A DNA stretch of 64,000 bases from an uncultured Dehalococcoidales bacterium (GCA_964586515.1 CAZPGJ010000001.1:394560-458559); one strand, 5' to 3'. Counted from the first letter of the stretch, positions 13,747 to 57,882 are shown. Numbers and translations: made by a program. Notes: generated by a model not told the origin, from the letters alone.

Positions 13747-14403
13747 CTATGCCGTTGCTTCCCTGAGCCTCTGTAGCGCCTGGCTTATCCCTTCCTCAGC
13801 CCTGAATACGCTGTTCCCCGCCACCAGGACATTGGCGCCAGCTTTAACTATGTCCGGGGCATTGTCCACAGTAATTCCCCCGTCAACCTCGAGCTCGGCA
13901 CCTAGTCCTCTATCATCGAGGACTTTGCGCATATTCGCTATCCTGGGCAGTGTTTCGGGAATAAAAGATTGCCCGCCGAAGCCCGGATTAACGCTCATAA
14001 TGAGGACCAAATCCACATGATGAAGAAATTCCTCTATTGCGCTGAGAGGAGTAGGCGGATTTAAAGATACTCCGGCCTTAGCCCCCAGTTCCTTTATTGC
14101 CTGAATCGTGCTATGGAGATGGGGAGAGGCTTCGACATGCACGGTAATAATATCGGCGCCGGCGTTAACGAAGTCGGAGATATACCGCTCCGGATGCTCT
14201 ATCATCAAGTGGACGTCCAGCGGCAGGCTCGTCACCTGGCGGATTGAAGCCACCACCGGGGCCCCGATGGTGATATTGGGCACGAAATGCCCGTCCATAA
14301 CATCTACGTGGATATAATCGGCCCCGGCCCTGGCGACCTCGTCAACCTGCTCGCCGAGGCGGGCAAAATCAGCAGACAGAATCGACGGCGCCAGCTTAAT
14401 CAT
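13747..14403 (-). CDS. rpe: ribulose-phosphate 3-epimerase
   Basis: 218 aa; [12 protein letters not shown] and DGGI motifs. Confidence 0.9.
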
Positions 14404-15746
14404 TTTTTGATCAGCCTCTTGGCTCTTCTCAGCGCCGTTCCCACCTGTCGGGGGGAGGTTCCGCCGGCCACATTTCGAGCGGCTACCGATGATTCCAAAG
14501 TTATATTATAGACATCGCCGCTGAAAAGCGGGGAGAACTTGCGGTATTCCTTCATGGCAAGTTCCCGGAAGTTTTTGCCCTTGCTCAGGGCGTATTCGCT
14601 GAGTTTCGCTACTACGCCGTGGGCTTCCCGAAACGGCAGGCCTTTCTTCACCAGATAATCGGCCAGGTCGGTGGCCAGGATATAGTCTGTTTTCATCGCC
14701 TGAGCAATACGCTCGCTGTTTACCTTAAGCGTTTTTACCATCCCGGCGAATACTTCCAGGCTGGCCTGCAGCGTGTCCACGGTGTCAAACAGCCCCTCCT
14801 TGTCCTCCTGCATATCCCGGTTATAGGCTAAAGGCAGAGACTTCATAGTGGTCAAGATGCCCATGAGGTGGCCGTATACCCGCCCGGTCTTTCCCCTCGC
14901 CAGCTCGGCCACATCGGGATTTTTCTTCTGAGGCATGATGCTGCTGCCCGTAGTAAAGGCTTCGCCAATCTCTATGAAGCCAAACTCGCTCGATGACCAC
15001 AGGATGAGCTCCTCAGCCAGCCGGGAAAGATGCATCATGGTGATGGCCGCTGCCGCTTCGTATTCTACGACGAAGTCCCTGTCGGAAACGGCATCCAGGC
15101 TGTTGGTGCTCACCTTGCTGAAGCCTAGCTCCCGGGCCACGAATTCCCGGTCTACGGGGTAAGGAACGCCGGCCAGGGCGCCGCTGCCCAGGGGCAGGAC
15201 GTCCGTGCGCCCCAGGCAGTCCTGAAATCTTTCCTTGTCCCGCTGGAACATCTCGAAATAAGCCAGCAGGTGGTGAGCCAGGAGGACCGGCTGGGCTTGC
15301 TGCAGGTGGGTATAGCCGGGCATGACGACGGCCTTGTTTGCCTCGGCCAGCTCCACCAGCGCAGCTTGCAGAGCTTTTATCTTATCGATGGTCTTCAAGA
15401 TTTCCTCCTTGACGAACAGGCGCAGGTCCAGGGCTATCTGGTCGTTCCTGGAGCGGGCGGTATGGAGCTTGCCTGCCACGTCGCCTATCTTTTCAAACAA
15501 CCCCGCTTCGATGTTCATGTGTATATCCTCGAGCTCGGTCTTGAATTTAAATTTTCCTCGTTCGATTTCCCTTCGAATAGAGTTGAGCCCTTTGGTTATC
15601 GTCTCCACCTCGCTCTCGGCTATTATCCCCTGCTTCGCCAGCATCTGGGCGTGAACAAGGCTGCCCTCGATGTCCTGGCGGTATAGCCGCCGGTCAAAGG
15701 GAATAGATGCCACATATTCTTGCGCCAGTTTATTGGTTCCTTTCAT
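14400..15746 (-). CDS. argH: argininosuccinate lyase
   Basis: 448 aa; fumarate-lyase signature [12 protein letters not shown]; N-terminus atypical (lacks WGGRF). Confidence 0.9.
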
Positions 15747-15806
15747 CTCTCCGGAAGTCCGGTTTCTATTCTGGCTTCGCCTCGCTTTCGGCTATTATAC
15801 CTTGTT

Positions 15807-16075
15807 TTGCCGGTATTTTTAACAGGAGCACTAACCTCCCGTGTCATTGCGAGCCCTTTTCTCTTGTCATTGCGAGCGACCTGCCCGCCTGCTCGCCGTA
15901 CGACTTCGGCAGGCGAGCCAAGGCTTGGCAGGCGGGAGCGTGGCAATCTCATTGCTTTCCTACCGAGATTGCTTCGGCTGACTAAAGTCAGCCTCGCAAA
16001 GACAGGGGGGAGGGATTGCGGAGCTTGTTCCGAAGCGTAAGCGAGGAATCTCGCTCCTCCCAGTGACAGAGGGAG
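15807..16075 (+). repeat. composite: TTTTTAACAGGAGCA element interrupted by a MITE copy (15842..16004, with duplicated 5' end)
   Basis: ggtatttttaacaggagca then gtcattgcgagccc..ttgtcattgcgagcgacc...cctcgcaaagacag then ggattgcggagcttgttccgaagcgtaagcgag, co-linear with the interrupted copy at 44118..44250. Confidence 0.6.
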
Positions 16076-16165
16076 ATAAGGAAAGGAAGGGTTAACTACC
16101 TTTGTGATATAATCGGAGCAAGGACAGACTAGGTAAACGTTGCCAGACTACCGCAGGTTATTGGC

Positions 16166-16698
16166 ATGGTCAATAAGAAATCACTTATCCCTGTCGATAG
16201 GATTGAAAAGGCAATCTTGTTAATCCGTGGGCAAAAAGTTATGCTCGATGCCGACCTGGCGGAGCTTTACGGTGTCGAGACGAGGGTTTTAATTCAAGCA
16301 GTCAAACGTAATCTGGAGCGGTTCCCTGAAGACTTTATGTTCCAGCTTAGCAAAGATGATGTTGATTTTCTAAGATCACAAATTGTGACCTTAAAGAAAG
16401 GACGCGGGCAACACAGCAAATATTTACCTTACGCTTTTCTTTTACTGAACAGGGCGTTGCCATGCTATCCAGTGTCTTGCGTAGCCGGCGTGCTATCCAG
16501 GTAAATATTGAGATAATGCGGGCTTTTATCCGCTTACGGCAGATGCTGGCAAGTCATGTCGAGCTTGCCCGTAAGCTAGATGCCCTTGAGAAGAAGTATG
16601 ATGCTCAATTTAAACAGGTGTTTGAAGCTATTCGTCGTCTTATGGCGCCACCGGAACCGAAACGGCGCCCCATAGGATTTCGAAAGGGGGACGAATGA
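16166..16698 (+). pseudogene. ORF6N-domain (phage anti-repressor-like) gene disrupted by a +5 frameshift
   Basis: Two track ORFs (16166..16504, 16462..16698) together give [18 protein letters not shown]...FPEDFMFQL...KYLPYAF|MLSSVLRS...VNIEIMRAF; tandem CTTTTCTTTT at 16434..16443 shifts the frame. Confidence 0.7.
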
Positions 16699-16717
16699 AA
16701 TCAGGTTTTGGTGAAGA

Positions 16718-16990
16718 TTGTTGAAATCGCAATCTGGGATGTCAAGGCTATATTTAGATATAGAAGTGCGTAAGCAATTGGGAATAGAGGAAGGTGACCT
16801 GGTAGAAATTGACGTTGAAGTCGAGAAAGCTGTGTTAATGCCCAAGAAACTGGTGGACAAGAGCCAGGCTTACTTCTGGACGAAGCGGTGGCAGGAGGGT
16901 GAGAGGGAGGCTGACGAAGACATTAAAGCCGGGCGGGTGAAGACCTTTAACTCGGTTGACGAGCTTATCAAAGACTTAGACAAGGAATAG
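16718..16990 (+). CDS. AbrB/SpoVT-family antitoxin-like protein (N-terminally diverged orphan)
   Basis: 90 aa; 80% identical over residues 17-90 to 45359..45646 ([15 protein letters not shown]...[14 protein letters not shown]); no toxin partner follows. Confidence 0.5.
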   Translation: MLKSQSGMSRLYLDIEVRKQLGIEEGDLVEIDVEVEKAVLMPKKLVDKSQAYFWTKRWQEGEREADEDIKAGRVKTFNSVDELIKDLDKE

Positions 16991-17002
16991 CAGTCTCTGT
17001 CT

Positions 17003-17075
17003 TGCCGGTATTTTTAACAGGAGCACCTGCTCGAAGCCTGAGGACATCGCGCCTGTCTGAACTTTCTGTCAAAAT
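17003..17075 (+). repeat. TTTTTAACAGGAGCA boundary element (family 2)
   Basis: ccggtatttttaacaggagcacctgctcgaagcctgaggacatcgcgcctgtctgaacttt; other copies 42232, 44118, 45203, 45694. Confidence 0.55.
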
Positions 17076-17170
17076 GTGTTCAAAACAGTTTTCTCCATCT
17101 CAGTCGTGTTTATTGACATTACGTTCCTTCTACCGCTACAATTACATCAAAAGCTAGAACATAGCGTAGT

Positions 17171-18514
17171 TTGCAGACGACGAGCTTGGAGAGCATAACC
17201 CGGACACAGCCTCCCAAAATCGAACTTGATGGGGGAGGCCTTAACGAGCGCCTCTGTATTGAGGACAAATATCACTCCGTGATGTCGGAAAACCACAAAC
17301 TGGCCCACCTTGTCTCATACGTCGGCAATAAATCCGTTCCAATTCTAAGGCTCTACCGTTTCAAGGAGGCATTCTCTCTTGGCCTGGTAAATTATTTCTT
17401 GGACGAATTCAAAGCTACGTCAGACGACCTCGTATTCGATCCTTTTGCGGGAATGGGCACCACACTGTTTGGGGCGATGCTACGAGGATTACCTTCTCTG
17501 GGCATCGATAAGTTACCTGTGGCAGCATTTGTCAGTAGGACGCTTCCGAAATTCCTGCTATTGGAGCCGGGCTCACTAGCTTCAACCTTCAGGCGGCTCG
17601 AGAACGTAGTGGACAAGTTGGAACCGGCGACTATTGCGGATGATGTTTCCATTATGAAAATCGCATTTGAGGAGCCGTACCTCACAAGGCTACTAAAATG
17701 GAAGGCCGCTATCGATAGCTTGCCAGCACCGCACAAAGAGCTCTTCACTCTGTTGCTCCTGTCCATATTGGAAAGTACAAGCTACGCGTCCAATGATGGT
17801 CAGTTTCTGAGGTTGAACCTCCACAAGAAGCTTATGGCTCCCGACGAAGCGTTACTTAGAAAGGTGTTACTGGCCGAAGCTGACTCAATTGCGATCCAGC
17901 ATATGTGGCTCGACAGAATCCGGTACACTGAGAATCTGCCAATTCTCTGCGAAGCTGACGCACGAGACTTGAGCAATGTGGAGTTCCCAAAGAAGCCTAC
18001 AATTATAATAACATCACCCCCTTACCCCAATAGATATGATTATTCCAGAAGTTACTGCCTGGAACTATGTTTCCGCTTCGTGAAAAGTTTTGAAGAGTTG
18101 AAGGCGGTGCGGTTTGGGATTCTGCGCTCGCATATCGAATCCAGGGCCGAAGAGGGTGATAAACCTTGCCACCCTGTAATAGCCGAAGTCATACAAAACC
18201 TGGAAGGGCGGAAACTCAACAATCCACGCATTCCCATCATGCTGACTGCCTATTTCGTCGATATGGAGAAGTGCATACATGAGTGGGGTCGGGTGCTGGC
18301 CTCCGGTGCAAGGGTTGCTATGGTGGTAGACAACGTACGTTTCGAAGGACAACTCGTACCCGTCGACCTCGTTCTCTCTGACATAGCTGAACGATACGGT
18401 TTTTGCGTCGACGGAATTGTTGTAGCGCGGTACAAGGGCAATAGTTCACAGCAAATGGGACGCTATGGTCGTATCCCTGTGCGAGAGAGTATTACATTGT
18501 GGAGGAAGCTGTGA
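17171..18514 (+). CDS. Type II DNA methyltransferase (N4-C/N6-A, alpha-class order)
   Basis: 447 aa; motif I DPFAGMGTT near residue 90 and motif IV TSPPY near residue 283 with a TRD-sized spacer. Confidence 0.75.
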   Translation: MQTTSLESITRTQPPKIELDGGGLNERLCIEDKYHSVMSENHKLAHLVSYVGNKSVPILRLYRFKEAFSLGLVNYFLDEFKATSDDLVFDPFAGMGTTLFGAMLRGLPSLGIDKLPVAAFVSRTLPKFLLLEPGSLASTFRRLENVVDKLEPATIADDVSIMKIAFEEPYLTRLLKWKAAIDSLPAPHKELFTLLLLSILESTSYASNDGQFLRLNLHKKLMAPDEALLRKVLLAEADSIAIQHMWLDRIRYTENLPILCEADARDLSNVEFPKKPTIIITSPPYPNRYDYSRSYCLELCFRFVKSFEELKAVRFGILRSHIESRAEEGDKPCHPVIAEVIQNLEGRKLNNPRIPIMLTAYFVDMEKCIHEWGRVLASGARVAMVVDNVRFEGQLVPVDLVLSDIAERYGFCVDGIVVARYKGNSSQQMGRYGRIPVRESITLWRKL

Positions 18515-19518
18515 GGCAGAGTGAGCTGCAACGTGAAGCAGAACAAGCCAGCTATGCGCTGCGCTCGTCATTCTTCTACAGGGTTCACTCTTTGTGGCCA
18601 AATCTCCTGCAGATGTTGTCGCTGGCGGGAGGTTTGAAGGTAAACTGGCGAGGCCGTAGAGGACTTGGTATTTCTGAGGCAGCATGGCAGCGTATCCAGA
18701 CCCAGGGTATTGATCCAGTCAATGTATTTTGCCATCCTGCAGTGATAAGAGCGACCCCTCCGCTGATTACCTACTATCGTTGTCTGGCGTTGCTTCCTCA
18801 AAAGGGCGCGCAGCGTCTAGCCTACACAACCAAACAGTTTGAGGATGGGAAGAAGACTAACTTAGTCGAGAAGCAAGCAACCAAGCTGGCACAGGTCTTT
18901 AATGGCCTTGTCAGCCTTCTCATTGAGTCCGACCCAAAGTGGTCATTGGAACAGAATCGTATTGCGGCTTTACTGAATCTGGGCACGCAGGTCAATGGCT
19001 CCTGGCGCAATGAGATAGGCGCTGAGGGAAGCCGCAGAGTAAAAGAGTTGCTGATTAGCCACTTTGTCCAGTCGGGGCTTGTAAGTGATGCTTCCAGAAC
19101 AAATGGATCAAAGATACAAATTGCGGAACTTGCTGGTGCACCTGAGGCTCCGCCAATCGAGGTAATCCGATCATTCAAAACGCCTGCTGGTTATATGTTT
19201 ACCTTTGCAAGCGAGCCCGATGTATCGATTCGTAGCGCTGACGGGGTCTTGGTGAGCACAATTGAGGTTAAATATGGGCTCGATCCAGCCGGGGCACTTG
19301 AGCGCTACGGGGCTGCCAAGAAATCTTTCGAGCAGGCGACAAGAGAGAATCGCCGAGTTCACAATATATACCTGGCCAGCTGCATTACCCCCGAGGTCCG
19401 AAACAGAATTAGCGAAGACAGGCTCGTCAACGAAGATTTCAATCTTACAGAAGTGCTTGGGGATGCTGAAAAGCGAACGCAGTTCCTTAGGCATATAGAG
19501 CACCTTATTAGCCTGTAA
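18499..19518 (+). CDS. cognate Type II restriction endonuclease (PD-ExK)
   Basis: 339 aa; start overlaps MTase stop; candidate catalytic motif EPD...(18)...IEVK; no other recognisable domain. Confidence 0.5.
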   Translation: MEEAVRQSELQREAEQASYALRSSFFYRVHSLWPNLLQMLSLAGGLKVNWRGRRGLGISEAAWQRIQTQGIDPVNVFCHPAVIRATPPLITYYRCLALLPQKGAQRLAYTTKQFEDGKKTNLVEKQATKLAQVFNGLVSLLIESDPKWSLEQNRIAALLNLGTQVNGSWRNEIGAEGSRRVKELLISHFVQSGLVSDASRTNGSKIQIAELAGAPEAPPIEVIRSFKTPAGYMFTFASEPDVSIRSADGVLVSTIEVKYGLDPAGALERYGAAKKSFEQATRENRRVHNIYLASCITPEVRNRISEDRLVNEDFNLTEVLGDAEKRTQFLRHIEHLISL

Positions 19519-19546
19519 AAAGGACGCTGAACTGGTAGCTGGAGGC

Positions 19547-19613
19547 GAATTCTAGGGACGCCATACCAGTCAGGCCTGCTACAAATCAGGTATTATGCCC
19601 CCAGAATATCCCC
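19547..19613 (+). repeat. cassette-boundary repeat, copy 1 (variant B, hairpin-less)
   Basis: gaattctagggacgccataccagtcaggcctgctacaaatcaggtattatgcccccagaata. Confidence 0.7.
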
Positions 19614-19955: not shown

Positions 19956-20020
19956 GAATTCCAGGGACACCATCCTTCACAAGGTGAAGGACAAATCAGG
20001 TATTATGCCCCCAGAATACC
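19956..20020 (+). repeat. cassette-boundary repeat, copy 2 (hairpin loop inverted: cacAAGGtg)
   Basis: gaattccagggacaccatccttcacaaggtgaaggacaaatcaggtattatgcccccagaatacc; begins 9 nt after stop of 19750..19947. Confidence 0.75.
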
Positions 20021-20163: not shown

Positions 20164-21285
20164 GTGATTCCGCTATTTGAACAGTACCCGCTATTGCGGG
20201 AGAAGCTTGCCTATGTACCGCTAGGCGAATTTCCTACCCCGGTGCAAAAGCTTGAACGATTAGGAGCTGAGTTGGGCGTCAGCCAGCTCTATATAAAACG
20301 CGATGACCTGAGTGGCAAAGTCTACGGTGGTAACAAGCCTCGAAAGTTAGAGTTCATTCTGGGCAACGCTCTGCGCTCCAAGGCGAAGGAGGTTATAACC
20401 TTTGGTGGTGCCGGGTCGAATCATGCCTTGGCCACTGCCATATATGCACGACAGGTCGGTCTGAAGAGCATCTCGATGTTAATGCCTCAGCCGAATGCCC
20501 AGTATGTTCGCCGCAATTTACTCATGAGCCACTACTGTGGTGCGGAACTACACTTGTGTGAGGCCGACTTGGAATCTGCAAGAAATATGCCGTTGGTTTA
20601 TGCGGCAACCACCTATCAGCTTTTGCGACACAAGCTGGAAAAAGGCCGCCTTCCCCACTTTATCTCTCCTGGCGGTTCTTCACCCCTCGGCGTTACTGGT
20701 TTTATTAATGCAGCTCTTGAATTAAGAAGACAAGTAACGAGTGGAGAAATGGCGGAGCCAGAGTATATTTACGTCGCTTGCGGTTCAATGGGCACAGCGG
20801 CCGGATTGACTCTTGGACTCAGGGTAGCGAAGCTCGGTGGCCGGGTAGTCTCGGTAGCCGTACACAGTGAAAGATTTACCAATACCAGAGCAATGATTAA
20901 ACTCATCAAAAAAACGAACTCTTTACTTTGTTCTCTGGACGCTGCTTTCCCCAGATTTGAGTTCTCTGAAACAGACGTTGATATTAGACACGATTATGTT
21001 GGCAAACGATACGCGCTCTTCACAGATGAGGGGATGGAGGCAGTATCCCTGATGAGAGAATGTGAAGAAATCAAGCTAGATGGCACCTATACAGGTAAGG
21101 CCTTAGCGGCGCTTAAACATGATGCAAAAAGCGGGAGCTTGCGAGGTAAAGCGGTCCTATTTTGGAACACTCTGAACTCAAGGGATTTCTCAAACGCTAT
21201 ATCTGACGTTGATTATCATGACCTACCTCGTTCGTTTCACCGTTATTTTGAGGAAGAAGCGCAGCCTCTTGACCATGACTACTGA
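20164..21285 (+). CDS. PLP-dependent ACC deaminase / D-cysteine desulfhydrase family enzyme
   Basis: 373 aa; PLP-lysine motif VYGGNKPRKLEF, FGGAGSNHALATA glycine loop. Confidence 0.75.
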   Translation: MIPLFEQYPLLREKLAYVPLGEFPTPVQKLERLGAELGVSQLYIKRDDLSGKVYGGNKPRKLEFILGNALRSKAKEVITFGGAGSNHALATAIYARQVGLKSISMLMPQPNAQYVRRNLLMSHYCGAELHLCEADLESARNMPLVYAATTYQLLRHKLEKGRLPHFISPGGSSPLGVTGFINAALELRRQVTSGEMAEPEYIYVACGSMGTAAGLTLGLRVAKLGGRVVSVAVHSERFTNTRAMIKLIKKTNSLLCSLDAAFPRFEFSETDVDIRHDYVGKRYALFTDEGMEAVSLMRECEEIKLDGTYTGKALAALKHDAKSGSLRGKAVLFWNTLNSRDFSNAISDVDYHDLPRSFHRYFEEEAQPLDHDY

Positions 21286-21300
21286 CCACATAATTCCGGG

Positions 21301-21365
21301 GACGCCATACCAATCAGGCCTGCTACAAATCAGGTCTTATGTCCCCACAATACAGGTAGGTATTT
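21301..21365 (+). repeat. cassette-boundary repeat, copy 3 (variant B)
   Basis: aattccggggacgccataccaatcaggcctgctacaaatcaggtcttatgtccccacaatac. Confidence 0.7.
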
Positions 21366-21437: not shown

Positions 21438-21908
21438 GTGGAGGTGGCTCTAATGAAGGCTTTAATAGTATATGACTCGGTTTATGGAAATACGGAGAAA
21501 ATCGCCAGGGCTATTGCTGAAGCTATTACCCCGTCCGGTGAAGTCAAGGTACTGCGGGCGGGCGAGGCGAATCCCTCGGAATTGGCATCTATTGACCTTC
21601 TCATTGTAGGTTCTCCGACCCATGGGGGCAGGCCGACGCCGGCGATTCAAGGCCTCCTCAACAAAGTCCCTGAGCGTTCTCTTCAAGGTATCAACGTAGC
21701 TGCGTTCGACACCAGAACCCCGACGAAACTCGTAGCGGTGTTTGGATATGCTGCTGGACGCCTCGCCCGCAATCTGAAAAGGAAAGGCGGTGCTCTCATA
21801 GCGTCCCCGGAAGGCTTCTTCGTTACAGGCACCAAAGGTCCGCTGAAAGAAGGAGAACTGGAGCGGGCTGCAGGTTGGGCTAAAGGAATTTTGGAGAGCA
21901 AGAAGTAA
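21438..21908 (+). CDS. flavodoxin-like fold protein (copy 1)
   Basis: MKALIVYDSVYGNTEKIA flavodoxin phosphate-binding loop; ~90% identical to 54900..55364 including ~80 nt upstream. Confidence 0.7.
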   Translation: MEVALMKALIVYDSVYGNTEKIARAIAEAITPSGEVKVLRAGEANPSELASIDLLIVGSPTHGGRPTPAIQGLLNKVPERSLQGINVAAFDTRTPTKLVAVFGYAAGRLARNLKRKGGALIASPEGFFVTGTKGPLKEGELERAAGWAKGILESKK

Positions 21909-45646: not shown

Positions 45647-45693
45647 TCTCTGTCTTGTAGCCTTCTTAGCCATCGTTTTGATTGCATCGTTTT

Positions 45694-49193: not shown

Positions 49194-50015
49194 TTGCAAG
49201 TTCTGGGGGTGACGGAAGGAAATATGACTCGGCAATTGCATATCACCATCGAAGGAAGACTAGGCCAAATTCCCCTTAATACACTAGCGACTATGGCACG
49301 AAACTCCTGTGATATTTTGGAGGAGTTGGATAATGTGACCTCTGCGAAGCCCGGTGGGACTATGGAATGGTTTGTCTCGGGCATCTCCACTGAGGCAAGT
49401 TTGACGGTCACCATCGAAGCAAAGCCAAAACTAAAGGATGTAGATTATACAGGGAGGGTAGCAGAATTATTTGTTGATGGATTGGCGCATATTGAGAAGG
49501 AGCATACCACTCCGCCGTATTTTTCTGACTATGGTCTCCGTAAAACTCATAACATTGCCAAAACCCTTCGTAAGAATGGAGCAGAAGCTATCAGAGTGGA
49601 AGACATTGAACGCAAAGCCAGTGGCCTTATAAAGGCAGATGTGGCGGACCCTCTGAAAAAACTCATTAGTATTCGGTATCAAGAGATAGGTTCAGTAGAG
49701 GGTACACTTGAAATGATTTCTATTCACGGCTATCCACGTACAACTGTTTATCATTCTATTACACATCGGTCTGTTAGCTGCAAATTTGCCCCCAGATTGT
49801 TAGAGATAGTTAAAGAAGGGCTGGGAAATCGTGTGATTGTACACGGCATAGTTTATTTCAACTATGTGCATGAACCGATAAGAGTGGATGCCGAGAGGAT
49901 AGAAATAATGCCTCAAGAGGAGGAACTTCCTACGGCAAAAGACTTACGTGGTATGGTTCCTGATTTCACGGGGGATATGAAGACTGAAGACTATATTCGG
50001 AGTCTTCGTGAATGA
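49194..50015 (+). CDS. hypothetical protein (no recognisable domain), upstream partner of PIN gene
   Basis: 273 aa (probable start MTRQLHITIEG at 49224); stop overlaps start of PIN gene (ATGA). Confidence 0.45.
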   Translation: MQVLGVTEGNMTRQLHITIEGRLGQIPLNTLATMARNSCDILEELDNVTSAKPGGTMEWFVSGISTEASLTVTIEAKPKLKDVDYTGRVAELFVDGLAHIEKEHTTPPYFSDYGLRKTHNIAKTLRKNGAEAIRVEDIERKASGLIKADVADPLKKLISIRYQEIGSVEGTLEMISIHGYPRTTVYHSITHRSVSCKFAPRLLEIVKEGLGNRVIVHGIVYFNYVHEPIRVDAERIEIMPQEEELPTAKDLRGMVPDFTGDMKTEDYIRSLRE

Positions 50016-50494
50016 CTAACACTATTTATAAACAACCGTATTTGGAGAGTAGCGTTTTTATCGCCCTCATTAAAGGTGAGGTCATAGACGGGGTAGATAG
50101 AGCCGATATTGCTCAACACATTCTTGACGATGCTGCAAGAGGAAGGTGGCCTATTTTCACATCCACATTTACCTTTGCAGAAGTAATCAAAGATCGCAAA
50201 AGACCCTTGTTAACACTGGAGGAAGAAAGGAGAATTGGTGATTATTTCAAACATAAATACATTAAGCCAGTGCTATTAGATAGGGAAGTTGGAGAATCAG
50301 CGAGACGATTAGCTAGAATTTATACTCTACGCCCCGCTGATGCTGTTCACTTGGCAAGTGCTATCCAAGCAAAAGCAGATGAATTGTTGACTTGGGATAG
50401 TGGTAATTTCCCAATTGGTCAAACTATAGAGGGAGTCACAATTAAATTACCATATTGGTTTGGTCAAACTAGGATACCATTGCAACCAAGCTAA
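50012..50494 (+). CDS. PIN-domain nuclease
   Basis: 160 aa; acidic residues in PIN positions: YLESSVFIA, TSTFTFAEV, PADAVHLASA, LLTWDSG. Confidence 0.6.
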   Translation: MTNTIYKQPYLESSVFIALIKGEVIDGVDRADIAQHILDDAARGRWPIFTSTFTFAEVIKDRKRPLLTLEEERRIGDYFKHKYIKPVLLDREVGESARRLARIYTLRPADAVHLASAIQAKADELLTWDSGNFPIGQTIEGVTIKLPYWFGQTRIPLQPS

Positions 50495-50568: not shown

Positions 50569-50632
50569 TAATTCCCGGGACACCATACCAATCAGGCCTA
50601 CTACAAATTAAGTATTATTTTCCCCAAAATAC
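50569..50632 (+). repeat. cassette-boundary repeat, copy 18 (variant B)
   Basis: aattcccgggacaccataccaatcaggcctactacaaattaagtattattttccccaaaatac. Confidence 0.65.
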
Positions 50633-50680: not shown

Positions 50681-51355
50681 TTAAGCATTCAAGAGGCTAT
50701 TACCGGTGAGCAACAGCACAGCGTTGTCGATTAGCTTTGGTACGGTTGTATTCCAACCATCATCGAGGTATTTCTCCCACATATCTCCCGGACTTTCCAT
50801 CACTTCTAGGGCAAGATGCATAATTTCCATGTACTTTACGCCCGATTCTGCTTCGTACCCATAGAAATATTTGAGTGTATTCTTCGAGTCCATAGGAATA
50901 CACAATTTAGGAAACAAAAAGTGTAGTAGTTTGGAATTAGACACCAGTCTTCCGCCTGTCTTCATCACGTGTAGATTCTCGTAAACGTCGGCTATGCAAT
51001 CAAGTTTCTGTTCGATGCTCCCGTGTTGCCTTTCTACTGCTTCGAGGTTAGACAACTGCGATATACAGACGAAAATACTCTGTTTGAAATCATCGAAGTA
51101 CTTAAGTCTGGCTCCCCGGCTGTTCATGTCCCAGGCCACAAGAGTAGCGTAGACTATCTCCAAATTGTGGTCGTCAGAAATAAAAGATGTGACGGTCCCT
51201 GCGCCAAATCTCAGTACGAGTGTTCGCTTATAGAAGTAAAGGTCTGGGCCAAAACGGCCGTCACGTCCGATTCGGTATAGCCGATTTATATCAGATATTC
51301 TATTCTCTATCGTTGTCTTGATGTCATTCATCTTCTGAGTTCTGTTTTTTATCAT
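50681..51355 (-). CDS. hypothetical protein
   Basis: 224 aa; clean ORF bounded by two repeat copies; no motif recognised. Confidence 0.4.
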   Translation of the reverse strand: MIKNRTQKMNDIKTTIENRISDINRLYRIGRDGRFGPDLYFYKRTLVLRFGAGTVTSFISDDHNLEIVYATLVAWDMNSRGARLKYFDDFKQSIFVCISQLSNLEAVERQHGSIEQKLDCIADVYENLHVMKTGGRLVSNSKLLHFLFPKLCIPMDSKNTLKYFYGYEAESGVKYMEIMHLALEVMESPGDMWEKYLDDGWNTTVPKLIDNAVLLLTGNSLLNA

Positions 51356-51519: not shown

Positions 51520-51583
51520 CAATTCCAGGGACACCACCCCAGTCAGGCCTGCTACAAATCAGGTATTATTTCCCCAGAATACC
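51520..51583 (+). repeat. cassette-boundary repeat, copy 19 (variant B)
   Basis: aattccagggacaccaccccagtcaggcctgctacaaatcaggtattatttccccagaatacc. Confidence 0.7.
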
Positions 51584-51706
51584 ACGAAATCAAAGGCGCA
51601 GATGGTGAACTTTGGTTAAGAGTCGAACTCGAATAGGCCGATATCCACGCAGGCAGCAAGCGTATCCATTGGGTCATTTCAAACTGTGACGGGGATGCTT
51701 AGCCGG

Positions 51707-51857
51707 CAAAAAAAGATGCCCCGAGTAACCTCACTTCCTTCACCTGCATCGTCCGGCTCAGCCCTCAGCTTATCCTGTGCCGACCACCGCCAGCACCTTT
51801 CAGCCTCCGCCAAGCTCAACTCTTATGCCGGGTCCCTGCTCGGCTACTCGGGACAAC
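51707..51857 (-). ncRNA. candidate ~150-nt structured small RNA (copy A) with own promoter and U-tail
   Basis: Minus strand: TTGACA(51891-51886)-18-TAGTAT(51867-51862); transcript GUCCCGAGUAGCC...CAGGUGAAGGAAGUGAGGUUACUCGGGGCAUCUUUUUUU; 5' CCCGAGUAG pairs with 3' UUACUCGGG; ~80% identical to copy B with conserved ends and variable middle. Confidence 0.35.
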
Positions 51858-51938
51858 CTTAATACTAGCACATATATAGAACAGTTGTCAAGTCCGCATA
51901 TGTACCAGGACGTCAGTAATGTCATGTGTCGGCACAGG

Positions 51939-52388
51939 TCACTTCTGGGTGAACTCCGGATGGTTCCTTTTCAACCATTCCAGGACCGTAGTGCGAAGCT
52001 TCTTTGCCAGAGCAAGCATCTTCTCAACTTCTTGTTCAGAAACCATGCCCACTCTCTCATAATCAGCGATATTGCGTTTCCTGCGAAAGGTATTAAGCTG
52101 GTCAATGGTCCTGGCATCAAGCTGCATGGTGAAAGCTAGCGACTGGATAGTCCAGTAGTGGTGGCCTTCTTGTGCTGCCCTGTAGCCACTGGCAGCCAGC
52201 GCTACCGTCGCTGCCAGCAAGGCAGCACTGTAAGCGGTGGCGAATCGCCTGTCCGCGCTCAATTCATGTAACTGGGCATCCGCCAGGTCACGGTCAGCCG
52301 CCTTCAGTAGCTCGGCAATGTCGCTACTGCTTGTTTTATGGGCTCTTAACCGCCCGCTTTCCAACCAGCTTTGTAAGCTCGTATTCAT
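51939..52388 (-). CDS. HEPN domain protein (second MNT-HEPN pair)
   Basis: 149 aa; paralogue of 25347..25799 (NAAVQTAKAAL / SAALLAATVAL; RNISDYER / RNIADYER). Confidence 0.6.
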   Translation of the reverse strand: MNTSLQSWLESGRLRAHKTSSSDIAELLKAADRDLADAQLHELSADRRFATAYSAALLAATVALAASGYRAAQEGHHYWTIQSLAFTMQLDARTIDQLNTFRRKRNIADYERVGMVSEQEVEKMLALAKKLRTTVLEWLKRNHPEFTQK

Positions 52389-52953
52389 TGCCTATGAGAA
52401 AGATTTTGTCGCCCTCAAGCACTGTATTGAGGAAATGGTGAGCGTCCTTTATTTTCTGTTTGAATTCAGTGATAGGATATACTACCGGGTTGACTTCGCG
52501 CCCCAGTTTTTGTTCCGCCGGGTTGAGAAGCGAAACCACGTCTTCAAAGGAGATTCTCCCAACTATCATCACGTCAATATCGCTTGTTCTCCTTTCATCG
52601 CCGCTGACGATTGAGCCGAATATGAAAGCAACCTTTATCTGCCCGATACAAGGCGCCAGTGCTGAGCGCAGGACGTCTGCCACACCCACAGTTTTGACAA
52701 TTATTCCATGCAGCTCATTAAAAAGAGGGCTCTGCCGGTTTGCCTGATAATATTTCTGTTTTCCCTCCGTAGTCGAAACAAGAATACCGGTCTCCTCCAG
52801 ATGTGCCAGCTCACGGCTCACATTTGTAGAATCTTCCTCCACTAAGGCGGTAAGTTGGCGGACAAAATAGCGCTGATCTGGATGTGTGAATAACCATCCC
52901 AGCACCTTTGCCCTGAGCTTTGACCCTACAAGTGTTCCTAATATTCCGTTCAT
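52336..52953 (-). CDS. wHTH + minimal nucleotidyltransferase (second copy)
   Basis: 205 aa; GSIVSGDERRTSDIDVMIV; paralogue of 24779..25378. Confidence 0.7.
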   Translation of the reverse strand: MNGILGTLVGSKLRAKVLGWLFTHPDQRYFVRQLTALVEEDSTNVSRELAHLEETGILVSTTEGKQKYYQANRQSPLFNELHGIIVKTVGVADVLRSALAPCIGQIKVAFIFGSIVSGDERRTSDIDVMIVGRISFEDVVSLLNPAEQKLGREVNPVVYPITEFKQKIKDAHHFLNTVLEGDKIFLIGNEYELTKLVGKRAVKSP

Positions 52954-53106: not shown

Positions 53107-53152
53107 GGAATTCCGGGGATACCATCCTTCACAAGGTGAAGGATCAGGTCGG
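53107..53152 (+). repeat. cassette-boundary repeat, copy 20 (truncated after hairpin)
   Basis: ggaattccggggataccatccttcacaaggtgaaggatcaggtcgg. Confidence 0.6.
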
Positions 53153-53254
53153 TGAATTTTGGTTAAGAGTCGAACCTGAATAAGCCGATATCCACGCAGG
53201 TATTAGGCCTATTTATCGGGCATTTGAAACTGCGAGAAGGATGCTCAGCTGGCA

Positions 53255-53405
53255 AAAAATAAAACGCCCCGAGTAACCTCACTTCCTTCACCTGCCATCG
53301 TCGAGCCTCATCTTCAGCCTACCTTGCGGCGATTACCATCCCCGCCTTTCAGCTTCCACCAAGCCCGACTCTTATGCCGGGTCCCCGCTTGGCTACTCGG
53401 GACAT
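53255..53405 (-). ncRNA. candidate ~150-nt structured small RNA (copy B)
   Basis: Minus strand TTGACA(53440-53435)-18-TAACAT(53416-53411); same conserved 5' GUCCCGAGUAGCC and 3' CAGGUGAAGGAAGUGAGGUUACUCGGGGCGUUUUAUUUUUU as copy A. Confidence 0.35.
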
Positions 53406-53611
53406 CTTCTATGTTAGCACATCCATAAAACATCTGTCAAGTTTTGTGCGCGGGGGTCGGAGCAACCGGCTTATGGATAACGAGGCCGGCTTTCGTGCAA
53501 CCCCGCCATATTGAGCGATGAGTCCCTTTCATGACTTTTCCCTTGGCGCGATATACAATCTAACGAAGAATTCTTGTGCCAACCCGTTACTTGAGTACGT
53601 AGGAGATAGGA

Positions 53612-54619
53612 TTGCTCTCAGCCATACCTGTACTGTTTGGCTCGCTAATTTCAGTCTTTATTGCCTCGCTTCTTTTTGTTAATGCGCTCGAATGGTTGGG
53701 CAATAAGTTGAACCTGGGTAGCTCATTTGTTGGGGCTGTTTTATCACCAATATTTACCTCCCTGCCCGAGCTAATTGTCATTCTAATAGCTATCTTTTCC
53801 AATATCGGTGAGGCCGGGCAAGAGGTCGGAATAGGGACGATTTTCGGAGAGCCTTTTATGGCATCCAGTTTGTCTTATAGCCTGGTGGGGATTGCCGTTG
53901 TCGTTGGATACCTTGGGAAGAAAAGAACCAGCACTACGCTGGTTATCGATAAAACTCTCTCTATTCCTTATATCTTCGTAATAGTTCTGTTTCCGTTAGT
54001 CCTGATACCGGGGTTCGTACATATAATTTGGGTGAAGTACTTATTCGGTGCAGGGTTTCTGGCGATTTTCATCTTCTATATGCGGTTAATGTACCGGAGA
54101 AGAATGACCGAGGAAATCGGAGAGGTTGAAGATCTTACGTTTGCTAAATTGGCCCCCAAAACACGCTCGCACCCAATGATAGTGTTAGCATTTCAACTTT
54201 CTGTGTCGGTTGTACTACTGTATTTCGGTTCGCGATATCTGGTCTCTTCGGTGGTAGCGATTTCTCAGGGGATTAATGTCAGCCCTTTAGGTTTAGCGAT
54301 GATTATTATTCCGGCGGCAACGGCTATCCCTGAGACTATAACTGCGCTGATCTGGGGATACAGGGGAAAGGATACACTGAGCATTGCCTCTCTGGTTGGT
54401 GAAAAGACTTTATATTCTACTTTCTACCCTGCAATAGGGCTATTTCTTACTTCCTGGGCGCTGGATATTCATGCTATATTCAGCGTCATTGTCACCACCC
54501 TAATTTCATTGATTCTGCTTTGCTACGTCAGGAGGCAACGATTACCCTGGTACAGCCTATTCTTCGGCCTCGCCTTTTTTATAGGTTACGGCGTACTAAT
54601 ATTCCTGTTTAGAATCTAA
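53612..54619 (+). CDS. CaCA-family cation/Ca2+ antiporter (YrbG-like)
   Basis: 335 aa; two alpha-repeat signatures GAVLSPIFTSLPELIVIL and IPAATAIPETITALIWG. Confidence 0.7.
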   Translation: MLSAIPVLFGSLISVFIASLLFVNALEWLGNKLNLGSSFVGAVLSPIFTSLPELIVILIAIFSNIGEAGQEVGIGTIFGEPFMASSLSYSLVGIAVVVGYLGKKRTSTTLVIDKTLSIPYIFVIVLFPLVLIPGFVHIIWVKYLFGAGFLAIFIFYMRLMYRRRMTEEIGEVEDLTFAKLAPKTRSHPMIVLAFQLSVSVVLLYFGSRYLVSSVVAISQGINVSPLGLAMIIIPAATAIPETITALIWGYRGKDTLSIASLVGEKTLYSTFYPAIGLFLTSWALDIHAIFSVIVTTLISLILLCYVRRQRLPWYSLFFGLAFFIGYGVLIFLFRI

Positions 54620-54752: not shown

Positions 54753-54817
54753 GAATTCCAGGGACACCTCCTTCACCTTGTGAAGGACAAGTCAGGCATT
54801 ATGTCCTCAGAATACAG
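54753..54817 (+). repeat. cassette-boundary repeat, copy 21 (variant A)
   Basis: ggaattccagggacacctccttcaccttgtgaaggacaagtcaggcattatgtcctcagaatacagg. Confidence 0.7.
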
Positions 54818-54899: not shown

Positions 54900-55364
54900 G
54901 TGGAGGTGTCTCTAATGAAGGCTTTAATAGTATATGACTCAGTTTATGGAAATACGGAGAAAATCGCCAGGGCTATTGCTGAAGCTATTACCCCGTCCGG
55001 TGAGGTCAAGGTACTGCAGGCAGGCGAGGCGAATCCCTCGGAACTGGCATCCAATGACCTTCTCATTTTAGGTTCTCCGACCCATGGGGGCAGGCCGACG
55101 CCGGCGATTCAAGACCTCCTTACCAAAGTCCCCAAGCTTCAAGGTATCAACGTAGCTGCATTCGACACCAGAACCCAGACGAAACTCGTCGGGGTGTTTG
55201 GATATGCTGCTGGACGCATCGCCCGTAATCTGAAAGGAAAGGGCGGTACTCTCATAGCGTCTCCGGTGGGTTTCTTTGTTACAGGTAGCAAAGGTCCGCT
55301 GAAAGAAGGCGAACTAGAGCGGGCTGCAGGTTGGGCCAAGGGAATTTTAGAGAGCAAGAAGTAA
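54900..55364 (+). CDS. flavodoxin-like fold protein (copy 2)
   Basis: 154 aa, ~90% identical to 21438..21908; differs by 3-aa indel (ERS). Confidence 0.7.
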   Translation: MEVSLMKALIVYDSVYGNTEKIARAIAEAITPSGEVKVLQAGEANPSELASNDLLILGSPTHGGRPTPAIQDLLTKVPKLQGINVAAFDTRTQTKLVGVFGYAAGRIARNLKGKGGTLIASPVGFFVTGSKGPLKEGELERAAGWAKGILESKK

Positions 55365-55404
55365 TTTTGTAATGCCCTTCCTCATTTCAACTATACAATT
55401 ACTG

Positions 55405-55467
55405 AATTCCAGGAACACCGTCCTTCACAAGGTGAAGGACAAGTCAGGTATTATGTCCCCAGAATAC
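55405..55467 (+). repeat. cassette-boundary repeat, copy 22 (inverted-loop hairpin)
   Basis: gaattccaggaacaccgtccttcacaaggtgaaggacaagtcaggtattatgtccccagaatac. Confidence 0.7.
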
Positions 55468-55599: not shown

Positions 55600-55899
55600 A
55601 TGGCAACTATAATAAAAGATCAAAATCTAGTAAGAGTGGGCAAGCCCGTCACACCGGATTCCAGGAAGCGAGTGGTTTTGCCCAAAACAGTAGTGAAAGA
55701 AGGTATTACCTATTTTATATATCATAATAGCGTTGGGCAGATAGTACTAGATCCACAGGCAAGTATACCTGCTTCTGAGTTATGGGTATTTGAAAATAAA
55801 GACGTTTTAGCCTCGATTGATAAAGGCATACGTGAGTCACTAAATGGGAAAACAATAGACCGTGGCTCATTTGCAAAACACATAAATGACGCACCGTGA
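55600..55899 (+). CDS. antitoxin-like protein (AbrB/MazE-type fold?)
   Basis: 99 aa; LVRVGKPVTPDSRKRVVLPKTVVKEG; overlaps start of downstream RelE/ParE-like gene. Confidence 0.4.
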   Translation: MATIIKDQNLVRVGKPVTPDSRKRVVLPKTVVKEGITYFIYHNSVGQIVLDPQASIPASELWVFENKDVLASIDKGIRESLNGKTIDRGSFAKHINDAP

Positions 55900-56212
55900 G
55901 CTACGTTTTACGCTTGAAGCTGACAAGCAACTAACAATCATTGAGAATGACCCCTCCCTTAAGGATGTACAAAAACAAGTAAGGAAAACTCTAAGATATT
56001 TAGAAACAAATCTCCGCTCAAAATCCTTACAAACCCACGAGTATCAATCACTAACCAGGCGTTATGGCATTAAGGTTTTTGAGGCCTATGTTCAACAGAA
56101 TACGCCGGGGGCTTATAGAGTGTTTTGGCATTACGGGCCGGATGAAATAAGCAAAGACGGAAAGCGAATACCCATTATCACCATCATTGCTATAACGCCT
56201 CACCCCGATTGA
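55886..56212 (+). CDS. RelE/ParE-superfamily toxin
   Basis: 108 aa; ...AYRVFWHYGPDE...IPIITIIAITPH C-terminal pattern. Confidence 0.5.
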   Translation: MTHRELRFTLEADKQLTIIENDPSLKDVQKQVRKTLRYLETNLRSKSLQTHEYQSLTRRYGIKVFEAYVQQNTPGAYRVFWHYGPDEISKDGKRIPIITIIAITPHPD

Positions 56213-56456
56213 CTAATTCCCCACCCTGCCCCAGCAGCTTTCTTATCTATTTCACTCCGCTGCTTTGCCGTTGGCTTATTAGCCCTGGCCTTACTACCTT
56301 TCCGACCACTGCGGCCACTTGCCAAACCTTAATTGTTTTACTACCATATAATCAACAGCGCCAGGGTGAGCAGCCCTGGCCCGACAGTCTCTCTTGTGAA
56401 GGGAGGCTGTTTCTTTTTGAACTGATTCCGCCGCAATATTATGTCTCTTGACCACA

Positions 56457-56500
56457 TAATTCCGAGGACGCCATGCCGGTCAGGCTTACTGCGGATCACG
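56457..56500 (+). repeat. cassette-boundary repeat, copy 23 (truncated variant B) - last copy before argG
   Basis: cataattccgaggacgccatgccggtcaggcttactgcggatcacg; 5' flank cttgaccacataattcc shared with copy 3. Confidence 0.55.
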
Positions 56501-56581
56501 TGTTAAGCTCCTAGGAAATGACCGCAAGCAAATTCCCAGATTCTTCGGTCACTCCGCTCCCTCAGAATGACAAAGAGTGAA

Positions 56582-57790
56582 TTATCGTTTTTCGGGTGGT
56601 TCGGGCTGCACCCTGGCCTGGGTCCTCGCGGGTAAGCCCCAGATATGGATGAAGCCGGGGGAGGCACTCTGGTCGAAGGCATCGCCCTTATCGTAAGTAG
56701 CCAGGCTGTAGTCGTAAAGAGAGTAGGGCGACTTTCTACCCACTATCTGACAGTTACCTTTGAAGAGCTTTACCCTTATGGTGCCGGTGACGTACCTTTG
56801 TGTGCTTTTCACATAGGCGGCTAAGTCCCGGCGCATGCCTGTGAACCACAGCCCATTGTAGATGAGGTCGGCATACTCCGCGGCGACCCCGGCCTTGAAG
56901 CGGAGCTGCTCCTTGGTCAGCACCAGGCCTTCCAGGGCCTGATGGGCCTTCAGCAGGACCACGGCAGCCGGCGCCTCATAAATCTCCCTCGATTTTATGC
57001 CCACCAGCCTATTTTCCACGTGGTCAATCCGGCCTACGCCATGTTTCCCAGCCAGGCTATGGACCTTCTGGACAAGGGCAACAGGCCCTAGCTTTCGTCC
57101 ATCCAGGCTTACCGGTATCCCCTTCTCAAAGCCAATCTCCAGATAAGCAGGCCGGGCCGGTGTTTTTTCGGGCGACTTTGTCCACAGGAAGACATCCTCG
57201 GGTGGTTCGTTCCAGGTGTCTTCCAGCACGCCACATTCAATGCTCCGGCCCCACAGGTTCTCGTCAATGGAATAGGGGTTGGCTTTGGTGATGGGGACAG
57301 GAATCTTGTGGACCCGGGCATATTCAATCGTTTGCTCGCGGGTCATCTTCCATTCCCGGGCCGGGGCTATTACCTTTAGTTCGGGGGCGAGAGCGGCCAC
57401 GCTGACATCAATCCTGACCTGGTCATTGCCCTTGCCGGTGCAGCCGTGAGCGACCGCTTTCGCCCTTTCTTTCCTGGCTGCTTCCACCAGGAGTCGGGCG
57501 ATAAGAGGACGCCCCAGGGCTGTGGCTAAAGGATACTGCCCTTCATAAACGACATCGGCCTGGAGGGCGGGGAAAACATACGACTTAATAAAGGTCTCTT
57601 TGGCGTCGACTACCAGCGCTTTGACGGCTCCGACTTTGAGTGCTTTTTGTCTGATAGCCTCGAGGTCGGGGACGTTGCCTATATCCACGGTGAGGGTGAT
57701 GACCTTCGAGTTATATTTTTCCTCGAGCCATTTTATGGCCACGGATGTATCCAGGCCGCCGCTGTAGGCCAATACTACCTTTCCTGACAT
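56582..57790 (-). CDS. argG: argininosuccinate synthase
   Basis: PP-loop AYSGGLDTS; start set at MSGKVVLAYSGG. Confidence 0.9.
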   Translation of the reverse strand: MSGKVVLAYSGGLDTSVAIKWLEEKYNSKVITLTVDIGNVPDLEAIRQKALKVGAVKALVVDAKETFIKSYVFPALQADVVYEGQYPLATALGRPLIARLLVEAARKERAKAVAHGCTGKGNDQVRIDVSVAALAPELKVIAPAREWKMTREQTIEYARVHKIPVPITKANPYSIDENLWGRSIECGVLEDTWNEPPEDVFLWTKSPEKTPARPAYLEIGFEKGIPVSLDGRKLGPVALVQKVHSLAGKHGVGRIDHVENRLVGIKSREIYEAPAAVVLLKAHQALEGLVLTKEQLRFKAGVAAEYADLIYNGLWFTGMRRDLAAYVKSTQRYVTGTIRVKLFKGNCQIVGRKSPYSLYDYSLATYDKGDAFDQSASPGFIHIWGLPARTQARVQPEPPEKR

Positions 57791-57882
57791 TTCATAACCT
57801 CCTGCTTCATTAAATCCCAAATCATAATATCTAAATCCTAAACAAATTCAAATTTCAAATGTCCTAAATTCAAAACCTTCAA

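Follow-up and report, generated by a model that had tools for sequence, protein, structure and literature searches.

To our knowledge, bacterial chromosomes have only one well-understood system for storing genes as site-bounded cassettes, the integron. A CALIN (a cluster of attC sites with no integron-integrase) consists of such sites and, by definition, has no intI. On Acinetobacter plasmids, small modules, often encoding toxin-antitoxin (TA) or resistance functions, are bounded by short pdif sites (XerC/D) and pass between replicons with no recombinase gene linked to them; pdif sites are 28 bp long, double-stranded and alternate in orientation. In Dehalococcoides mccartyi, the high-plasticity regions are genomic islands at the tmRNA gene, with direct repeats of about 20 bp and integrases. 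Here we consider a stretch of 64,000 nucleotides (the window) from an uncultured Dehalococcoidales bacterium (GCA_964586515.1, CAZPGJ010000001.1:394560-458559), in which argG and argH are 40,835 bp apart and most of the intervening genes are separated by copies of a 63-nt hairpin repeat. Like pdif modules, the units are small and bounded by sites, which here are 63-nt palindromes of a single orientation on a chromosome. Like the high-plasticity regions of D. mccartyi, the arrays place variable genes in a few fixed regions of a Dehalococcoidia chromosome whose synteny is otherwise conserved, whereas the 63-nt repeat between nearly all genes is found only here. We read the argG-argH interval as a repeat-delimited cassette array, kept at this locus by an uncultured Dehalococcoidia lineage and reshuffled at the repeats, and assign this reading a probability of about 55%.

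The canonical unit (GAATTCCAGGGACACCATACCAATYAGGCCTRCTACAAATCAGGTATTATGTCCCCAGAATAC, 63 nt) is an imperfect palindrome. Its arms are imperfect inverted repeats with two conserved 2x2 mismatches (internal loops), it folds into a hairpin on either strand (z about -3.5), and it ends in GAATTCC and AGAATAC without a T-run. No compensatory covariation was found in the repeat; as the variation is one-sided, covariation is uninformative on its structure. A profile built from the copies locates 23 of them in the window (Table 1), all on the plus strand from 19547 to 56519 and about 86% identical to one another, with gaps of less than 4 kb between neighbours in 19 of 22 cases. The same profile search finds none in the 27 kb of flanks, despite at least eight usable intergenic gaps. 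The units between repeats are mostly 0.4-2.5 kb long and hold one or two genes. Copies are located 0-120 nt past the stop codons of plus-strand genes, at the 3' ends of several minus-strand genes and also between divergent gene starts (24608, 26673), and their orientation is fixed regardless of the direction of the neighbouring genes. Since 3' ends and divergent starts are occupied alike, the repeats mark the boundaries of units and not one end of a gene. This family is the organising principle of the region, which the preliminary description had missed although the three families of short repeats and the duplicated cassettes it reported are real.

To follow the repeat beyond the window, one genome per species was scanned with a degenerate 25-mer derived from it, resulting in 100 stretches, nearly all from Dehalococcoidia metagenome-assembled genomes (MAGs). 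The profile identifies 299 copies, spread over 102 stretches from about 30 species of Dehalococcoidia MAGs; a single stretch has mixed orientation. An independent metagenome scan gives 297 copies in 120 stretches, none of them mixed. Together the two scans comprise about 220 stretches (labelled by L-numbers below) and about 600 copies. The unit is 63 nt long in 202 of the 245 full copies, and copies are spaced at a median of 1.13 kb. Of 208 intervals between repeats, 117 have just one open reading frame (ORF, at least 80 aa). In total, 158 ORFs are co-oriented with the repeat and 104 are opposite (60:40). Scan-positive MAGs have several contigs each, with repeats often at contig ends; viral contigs lack the repeat.

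Breakpoints in gene order coincide with repeats. All comparisons are between related species, the nearest relatives being 93-94% identical, and none is within the same strain. Neighbouring homologues keep the adjacency and orientation seen in the window in 43 of 51 cases without an intervening repeat, versus 3 of 38 with one. Pairs of repeats from different stretches share homology on the upstream flank only (136 pairs) or the downstream flank only (168 pairs), and rarely on both (13 pairs, most of which represent one population sampled twice). Homology between cassettes stops at the edges of the repeat, sharply at the 3' edge, where …AGAATACC is followed by the cassette, and more raggedly at the 5' edge; for example, in each of the 10 MAGs that have the radical SAM cassette, its homology extends no further than the repeat. 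Every gene retains its orientation relative to the repeat. Repeats that have only one flank in common are no more alike than random pairs, hence the repeat is not tied to its cassette. In the flavodoxin duplication (21325-21952 and 54787-55408, 88-93% identical), homology begins inside the upstream repeat. The MNT/HEPN pair (in inverted orientation), a module of about 330 nt and the ORF6N region are also present twice. A presumed excess conservation of orthologous repeats over their flanks was withdrawn, as independent pairs give about 90% for the repeat and about 87% for the flanks.

A derived 64-nt variant of the repeat occupies at least 10 junctions in the window genome only, while orthologous junctions elsewhere have the plain form. 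This requires that sequence be exchanged between the copies of one genome. Its centre, CCTTCAC-CTT/AAG-GTGAAGG, is present in at least 10 window copies with the loop in both flip states. The 3-nt loop reads AAG in the copies at 19956, 27494, 29435, 53108 and 55404, and CTT in those at 22769, 23493, 24608, 25812, 26673, 28553, 31053 and 54753. The two loops of the 7-bp central hairpin are exact reverse complements, as predicted by flip-flop inversion of an extruded DNA hairpin.

The locus itself is conserved. The closest homologues of argH and argG (87-94% identity; 87-93% for argH against Dehalococcoidia MAGs) all stem from Dehalococcoidia or Chloroflexota MAGs, and no database record matches the argH protein exactly. 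A cyanobacterial origin, which the many TA genes had suggested, was rejected, as HIP1 sites are absent and the argH homologues belong to Dehalococcoidia. In every relative examined argG and argH are apart. The statement that they are usually adjacent thus does not apply to this lineage, although their separation by 40.8 kb in the window is correct. The interval measures 27.5 kb in JGI Ga0646010_000003, 19.4 kb in JGI Ga0499970_0000187 (L112) and 18.4 kb in NCBI JBRAJF010000002.1. An array adjoins the argG stop codon in six of six genomes, always antisense to argG (the window, L105, L021, L026, L063 and L078), and lies upstream of argH in three of three, in the same orientation. The pair mutS2-acVLRF1 is present in all four complete intervals; radical SAM, methyltransferase, hydrolase, half-size major facilitator superfamily (MFS) protein and flavodoxin are present in most of the four, and DUF362 also belongs to the common backbone. 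About half of the content of the window interval is common to relatives, while order, size and defence cargo are not. Both restriction-modification (R-M) systems, AbiE, the PIN pair, PIG-L, the Na/Ca exchanger and a few genes without assigned function have no homologue in the sampled relatives. In the best explanation, the content is of two kinds. One is an ancestral stock of ordinary genes: mutS2-acVLRF1, radical SAM, methyltransferase, acyl-CoA ligase, hydrolase, half-MFS, flavodoxin and DUF362/QueG-like. The other, specific to the strain, consists of defence and TA genes.

Arrays are not confined to this locus. A second conserved array boundary adjoins dtd-FUR-ABC transporter genes at 10 loci (L006, L007, L011, L032, L034, L039, L055, L068, L075, L077), and a 492-aa sigma-70 gene has repeats on both sides in four MAGs (L019, L028, L037, L048). 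The arrays are therefore limited neither to argG-argH nor to dispensable genes. Single copies are found beside core genes, namely uvrC/xer (L103), sigma-70 and dtd-FUR.

Our inference is that these patterns are caused by recombination at the repeats and that circular intermediates take part in it. Recombination between directly oriented repeats would drive shuffling, duplication, gain and loss of units: a unit could be excised as a circle and re-inserted at another repeat, and unequal exchange and conversion could occur between repeat copies. The agent might be a dedicated trans-acting recombinase or host RecA-dependent recombination acting on 63-nt repeats of about 86% identity, and both would fit alike; the strict co-orientation and the upkeep of the consensus argue for sequence-specific recognition. 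A more specific version, which we put forward only tentatively, is that cassettes are exchanged at the hairpin by a system of their own, not related to the integron, with an enzyme acting in trans on the argG/argH and dtd loci. The putative enzyme could be a tyrosine (Xer-like) recombinase or a single-strand HUH nuclease that recognises the folded or double-stranded site, and the system would hold conserved genes (mutS2-acVLRF1, the sigma factor) as cassettes beside defence and TA cargo. Neither R-M block (15.7-19.5 kb; 42.2-49 kb) contains the 63-nt repeat, and each follows a decayed ORF6N gene and copies of a different element of about 80 nt; the blocks would therefore be separate insertions made without use of the repeat.

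Several observations weigh against an array that is reshuffled at its repeats. The order of the backbone genes is partly collinear among three genomes, and JBRAJF010000002.1 keeps them in similar order with its repeats reduced to remnants. As this genome has the interval almost without repeats, the split of argG and argH is independent of the repeat; an alignment of empty and filled sites against this repeat-poor relative was too diverged to read. Apparently essential-type genes (sigma-70, the dtd neighbours) lie in arrays, and singletons lie in core regions. Polymorphisms within the repeat are linked to neither flank, no fixed crossover point is demonstrable, and the distance from stop codon to repeat differs among orthologues. 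No recombinase was found near the arrays (about 1.5 Mb) by tblastn with IntI1, XerD, IS200/IS608 TnpA, Hin and gamma-delta resolvase, a set of queries that did not extend to DDE transposases. Only Xer-like genes match, namely the housekeeping gene next to uvrC in L103 and one at the margin of L009, and Pfam finds no recombinase among recurrent neighbouring genes. Finally, the comparison data are mostly short-read metagenome assemblies, and some mis-joins at repeats are possible, although the divergence of about 14% between copies makes them unlikely. The same architecture is seen in a long-read MAG contig (L026).

The most serious alternative, which we nevertheless regard as doubtful, is that the repeat is a selfish element. 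It would resemble repetitive extragenic palindromes (REPs) and their mosaic elements (BIMEs), the REP doublets (REPINs) that depend on REP-associated tyrosine transposases (RAYTs), or miniature inverted-repeat transposable elements (MITEs), and be mobilised as single-stranded DNA in one orientation relative to replication. A RAYT or an HUH enzyme of the IS200/IS605 type would be encoded elsewhere, the intergenic spaces of an already variable region would have been colonised, and the rearrangements would be incidental. Much of what we observe accords with this. The repeat is a short, multi-copy, lineage-specific extragenic palindrome close to its consensus, with inverted arms that form a long imperfect hairpin. 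It occurs at several loci per genome, including the singletons described above, its sequence is untied to the neighbouring cassette, gene orientation within units is only 60:40, and a derived variant has multiplied in the window genome. The decayed remnants in JBRAJF010000002.1 are what loss of a mobilising enzyme would leave, just as REPs decay in lineages seemingly without a maintaining activity. The co-orientation would follow from a strand bias: PMC6006769 describes strand-specific targeting of the lagging-strand template in IS608/ISDra2 and related HUH systems.

Yet among 258 repeats there is not one for which another genome has a clean empty site, the six candidates being internal deletions of a resident copy. 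The target-site duplications that a MITE would leave are absent around the repeats, and so is a conserved target motif. No Y1 or RAYT-like gene was detected by the IS200/IS608 TnpA probes in the about 1.5 Mb around the copies. According to PMC3733652, one end of a REP palindrome carries a conserved tetranucleotide, GTAG or CGTC; here neither is terminal, and GTAG is confined to an internal position on the minus strand. REPs and REPINs are dispersed or form inverted doublets, unlike the strictly co-oriented local arrays, which are dense and stop short of the repeat-free flanks. The coincidence of breakpoints with repeats is far above what incidental recombination would give.

The preliminary description had regarded the region as a plasticity zone or defence island nested in a biosynthetic operon. 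Its richness in defence and TA genes and its window-only genes stand; an acquired island that splits the operon does not, since the split and the ordinary genes are conserved. A classical horizontally acquired island inserted between argG and argH is accordingly improbable. It would account for the dense defence and TA content, for the genes restricted to the window (including both R-M systems, AbiE and PIN), for a block of low GC (0.41-0.44) at 45-50 kb, and for a relative having a different R-M system in the same position near argH. Against it, related species have the split as well and share about half of the genes, mutS2-acVLRF1 is resident in all relatives, no integrase, tRNA or tmRNA gene was found in the window, and no att-type repeats flank the interval. 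In GC content the region is a mosaic (0.41 to 0.58) in which only sub-blocks deviate, not a uniformly foreign composition. For the interval as a whole the explanation is largely refuted, and it survives only for the sub-blocks at 15.7-19.5 kb and 42.2-50.5 kb.

We consider it very improbable that the region is a chromosomal integron array or CALIN, with the repeats as attC sites and IntI encoded outside the window. The layout is similar. Hairpin palindromes of about 60 nt, all on one strand and mostly less than 4 kb apart, end units of one or two genes; the sites number in the tens at one fixed place in the chromosome, and many of the cassettes are TA pairs; ORF-less units and duplicated cassettes occur; the order is reshuffled between relatives; and, as in CALINs, no integrase is nearby. 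The sites are homogeneous and typical of the species, matching the description of arrays and CALINs in PMC4889954, which also reports integrons in Chloroflexi. The region nevertheless lacks features that define the two. The AAC/GTT triplet, the best-conserved feature of attC (PMC4889954), is missing on either strand from the consensus and from all 23 window copies. The hairpin differs in geometry from the R/UCS/L/EHB plan of attC, with two conserved 2x2 internal loops where attC has single extrahelical bases. Repeats are not specific to a cassette, only 60% of the ORFs are co-oriented, and the arrays contain core-type genes (mutS2, the sigma factor). The search for intI gave nothing in the window or around the about 220 array stretches, the IntI1 probe gave nothing in 670 kb of metagenome arrays, and the Phage_integrase domain (Pfam) is absent from all ORFs of the window.

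That the repeats are expression elements without a role in rearrangement (bidirectional terminators, RNA-stability hairpins or protein-binding insulators) deserves the least credence: their position behind stop codons and the stability of the hairpin on both strands would suit it, but the orientation is fixed whatever the direction of the gene, copies lie between divergent starts, T-run and covariation are missing, and the breakpoints would remain unexplained.

The features of the interval and its boundaries are collected in Table 1.

Table 1. Coordinates of the boundary genes, the 63-nt repeats and the genes and cassettes of the window (families and scores from Pfam, PADLOC or NCBIfam where given).
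Feature	Position	Strand	Remarks
argH (argininosuccinate lyase), left boundary	14400..15746	-	Lyase_1 (1e-77) and ASL_C2
argH-proximal block without 63-nt repeat	15747..19546	+	decayed ORF6N, repeat families 2 and 3, type II R-M
Decayed ORF6N gene	16166-16504 and downstream		
Type II methyltransferase	17171-18514		PADLOC MTase_II 3.8e-77
XcyI-like endonuclease (REase_II)	18499-19518		PADLOC; paired with MTase_II
Repeat copy 1	19547..19609	+	plain type
Repeat copy 2	19956..20019	+	hairpin-64, loop AAG
Cassette: PLP-dependent enzyme (PALP)	20164..21285	+	homologues in 3 MAGs
Repeat copy 3	21291..21353	+	plain
Cassette: flavodoxin paralogue	21438..21908	+	duplicate of 54900-55364
Repeat copy 4	21967..22029	+	plain, divergent
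Cassette: DUF3237	22207..22671	+	located after acVLRF1 instead in L040/L050
Repeat copy 5	22769..22832	+	hairpin-64
Cassette: orphan HicA-like toxin	22858..23250	-	
Repeat copy 6	23493..23556	+	hairpin-64
Cassette: two membrane ORFs	23577..24533	-	unique to window
Repeat copy 7	24608..24670	+	hairpin type; orthologous L051/L076 junction has plain type
Cassette: MNT/HEPN pair	24779..25799	+	PADLOC PDC-M05A
Repeat copy 8	25812..25874	+	hairpin type
Cassette: half-size MFS protein	25930..26520	-	same size in relatives
Repeat copy 9	26673..26736	+	hairpin-64, 3' end eroded
Cassette: DUF4389 membrane protein	26839..27483	+	in 6 MAGs, with other neighbours there
Repeat copy 10	27494..27550	+	truncated, 3' arm deleted
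Cassette: alpha/beta hydrolase	27629..28525	+	
Repeat copy 11	28553..28613	+	hairpin type
Cassette: orphan HicB antitoxin	29002..29433	+	
Repeat copy 12	29435..29480	+	truncated
Cassette: AMP-binding acyl-CoA ligase	29484..30986	-	
Repeat copy 13	31053..31115	+	hairpin type
Cassette: MazF toxin and HTH_17 partner	31117..31813	-	
Cassette: mutS2 and acVLRF1 release-factor-like gene	31968..35142	+	fixed two-gene unit
Repeat copy 14	35146..35207	+	plain, divergent
Multi-gene stretch without intact repeats	35257..40197	mixed	
SAM methyltransferase	35257-35946	+	
PIG-L deacetylase	36328-37236	-	
QueG-like Fe-S protein	37752-38666	-	
DUF362	38863-39756	+	
Small membrane protein	39853-40197	+	
Repeat copy 15	40216..40264	+	degenerate, E 0.013
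Cassette: radical SAM enzyme	41140..42183	+	
Repeat copy 16	42153..42227	+	75-nt long form, central hairpin
Defence block without 63-nt repeat	42234..48924	+	
AbiEi/AbiEii	42364-44012		8e-82 and 1e-68
Second decayed ORF6N copy	44114-45792		interrupted by MazEF
mazEF	44554-45179		homologue in 1 MAG
Small ORF	45977-46231		
Type IIG-like R-M, 898 aa	46228-48924		nuclease-like N-terminus, N6_Mtase and specificity domain fused
Repeat copy 17	48986..49048	+	plain
Cassette: 273-aa ORF and PIN-domain protein	49194..50494	+	273-aa ORF: no assigned family
Repeat copy 18	50569..50632	+	plain
Cassette: 224-aa ORF	50681..51355	-	no family matched
Repeat copy 19	51520..51582	+	plain
ORF-less module (about 330 nt), copy 1	51604..51930	+	
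Cassette: HEPN/MNT pair	51939..52953	-	inverted paralogue of 24779-25799
Repeat copy 20	53108..53149	+	truncated
ORF-less module (about 330 nt), copy 2	53151..53480	+	
Cassette: Na/Ca exchanger family membrane protein	53612..54619	+	
Repeat copy 21	54753..54815	+	hairpin type
Cassette: flavodoxin	54900..55364	+	
Repeat copy 22	55404..55467	+	hairpin-64, loop AAG
Cassette: overlapping small gene pair	55600..56212	+	TA-like, unannotated; pair conserved in L044
Repeat copy 23	56457..56519	+	most divergent copy, 63 nt past argG stop codon
argG (argininosuccinate synthase), right boundary	56582..57820	-	Arginosuc_synth (6e-70) and C-terminal domain (2e-93)
argD	58008-59285	-	Pfam
argB	59197-59985	-	Pfam
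argJ	62612-63922	-	Pfam

Both R-M systems and AbiE of the preliminary description are borne out, and together with the two MNT/HEPN pairs (PDC-M05A) and the MazF, PIN and Hic modules they qualify the region as a defence island by enrichment. Its count of about eight TA pairs is fair: five are solid (MNT/HEPN twice, MazF with HTH, MazEF, and the 273-aa ORF with PIN), to which the HicA-like and HicB orphans and the unannotated pair at 55600-56212 are added. Pseudogenes are a different matter. The ORF6N fragments are indeed decayed, whereas the supposed MFS pseudogene at 25930-26520 is an ORF conserved at about 185-196 aa in at least four other MAGs, thus not evidently a pseudogene, and probably encodes a functional half-transporter. 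The defence block has a GC content of 0.41-0.44 from 45 kb onward. At the argH-proximal position, relatives have either MFS-argH or a different R-M system of the CfrBI type. In L112 (4829-7844), a CfrBI-like endonuclease and an N6_N4 methylase with an adjacent HNH gene lie just upstream of argH. As these occupy the same position as the XcyI-like system of the window, R-M systems land repeatedly at this end. The repeat expected after the MazF/HTH_17 cassette is present only as a remnant (about 31805-31825), and the QueG-like, DUF362 and small membrane protein genes stay linked in relatives.

The embedded mutS2 (31968-34355), already recognised earlier, scores 804 bits against TIGR01069 (cutoff 400). 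It is always directly followed by the acVLRF1/baeRF_family10 gene, and the pair is intact in 11 other loci (L105, L108, L111 and eight more), where it always sits between repeats. Travelling as one unit suggests that the two genes may form a ribosome-rescue pair; a literature search found no mention of VLRF1 together with MutS2. The module of about 330 nt is 81-87% identical across at least 15 MAG species without a conserved ORF, occurs in two copies each in L001, L047 and L080, and is always located 3' of a 63-nt repeat, usually with another repeat next. RNAalifold gives -49 kcal/mol without covariation, and no Rfam family matches. A non-coding RNA is one possibility, a DNA element linked to the repeat system another.

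Two further repeat families are present. The second (GTCATTGCGAGC ... GGCAATC) has a GC-rich internal hairpin and occurs in both orientations at 10414-10498, 12524-12578, 13537-13621, 13635-13676, 15864-15948, 15964-16005, 23440-23479 and 44149-44188. As it is found in the conserved flank and the interval alike, it is a genome-wide small palindromic element and not specific for the array. The third (TTGCCGGTATTTTTAACAGGAGCA ...) lies at 15805-15856, 16999-17078, 42234-42283, 44114-44165, 45198-45277 and 45689-45768, and also occurs in L018, L063, L087 and L097. In the window its copies are found upstream of three genes, for the type II methylase, AbiEi and the type IIG enzyme, and surround what is left of ORF6N. 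The family may serve as a common promoter or leader; alternatively, it may mark where another mobile unit with defence genes ends. AT-rich stretches with GGATTT/AAATCC-like words (12606-12660, 13198-13252, 13479-13539, 57809-57867 and 57975-58028) recur in intergenic gaps of the minus-strand operons, near GNAT/rpe and between argD and argG, with direct and inverted matches.

The arginine operon on the minus strand (Pfam) has the order argJ - 672-aa ORF - argB - argD - argG - [gap] - argH - rpe, and is followed beyond rpe by GNAT, FakA, DegV, RecG and ArgS. The 672-aa ORF (60056-62074, minus strand) matches no Pfam, NCBIfam or PADLOC family, apart from a weak PLD-like match (E 0.002), and contains a P-loop-like motif (GPSQNGKST). 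In relatives, the argJ-argB gap contains no ORF, a 95-aa ORF or a 253-aa ORF; with its differing content it constitutes a second small variable site within the arg operon. No Rfam family reaches its gathering score in the window; at E<=1 nothing covers the 63-nt repeats or the 330-nt module, and a lone sub-threshold match (sX5) is due to chance.

A search of the literature on integrons and cassette repeats in Dehalococcoidia and Chloroflexi found nothing comparable, and no prior description of a repeat-delimited array of this kind was found in the searchable literature. For Dehalococcoidia MAGs, the repeat provides a marker of variable regions and explains why assemblies break in them. A concrete sequence, together with repeat-poor relatives, gives a basis for seeking the responsible enzyme. 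The cassette architecture belongs to an uncultured, environmentally abundant lineage and differs from integrons in its site, in that no integrase was found, and in having housekeeping genes among the cassettes. Either cassette organisation arose more than once, or a simple hairpin repeat makes a chromosomal segment a recombination-prone store of genes.

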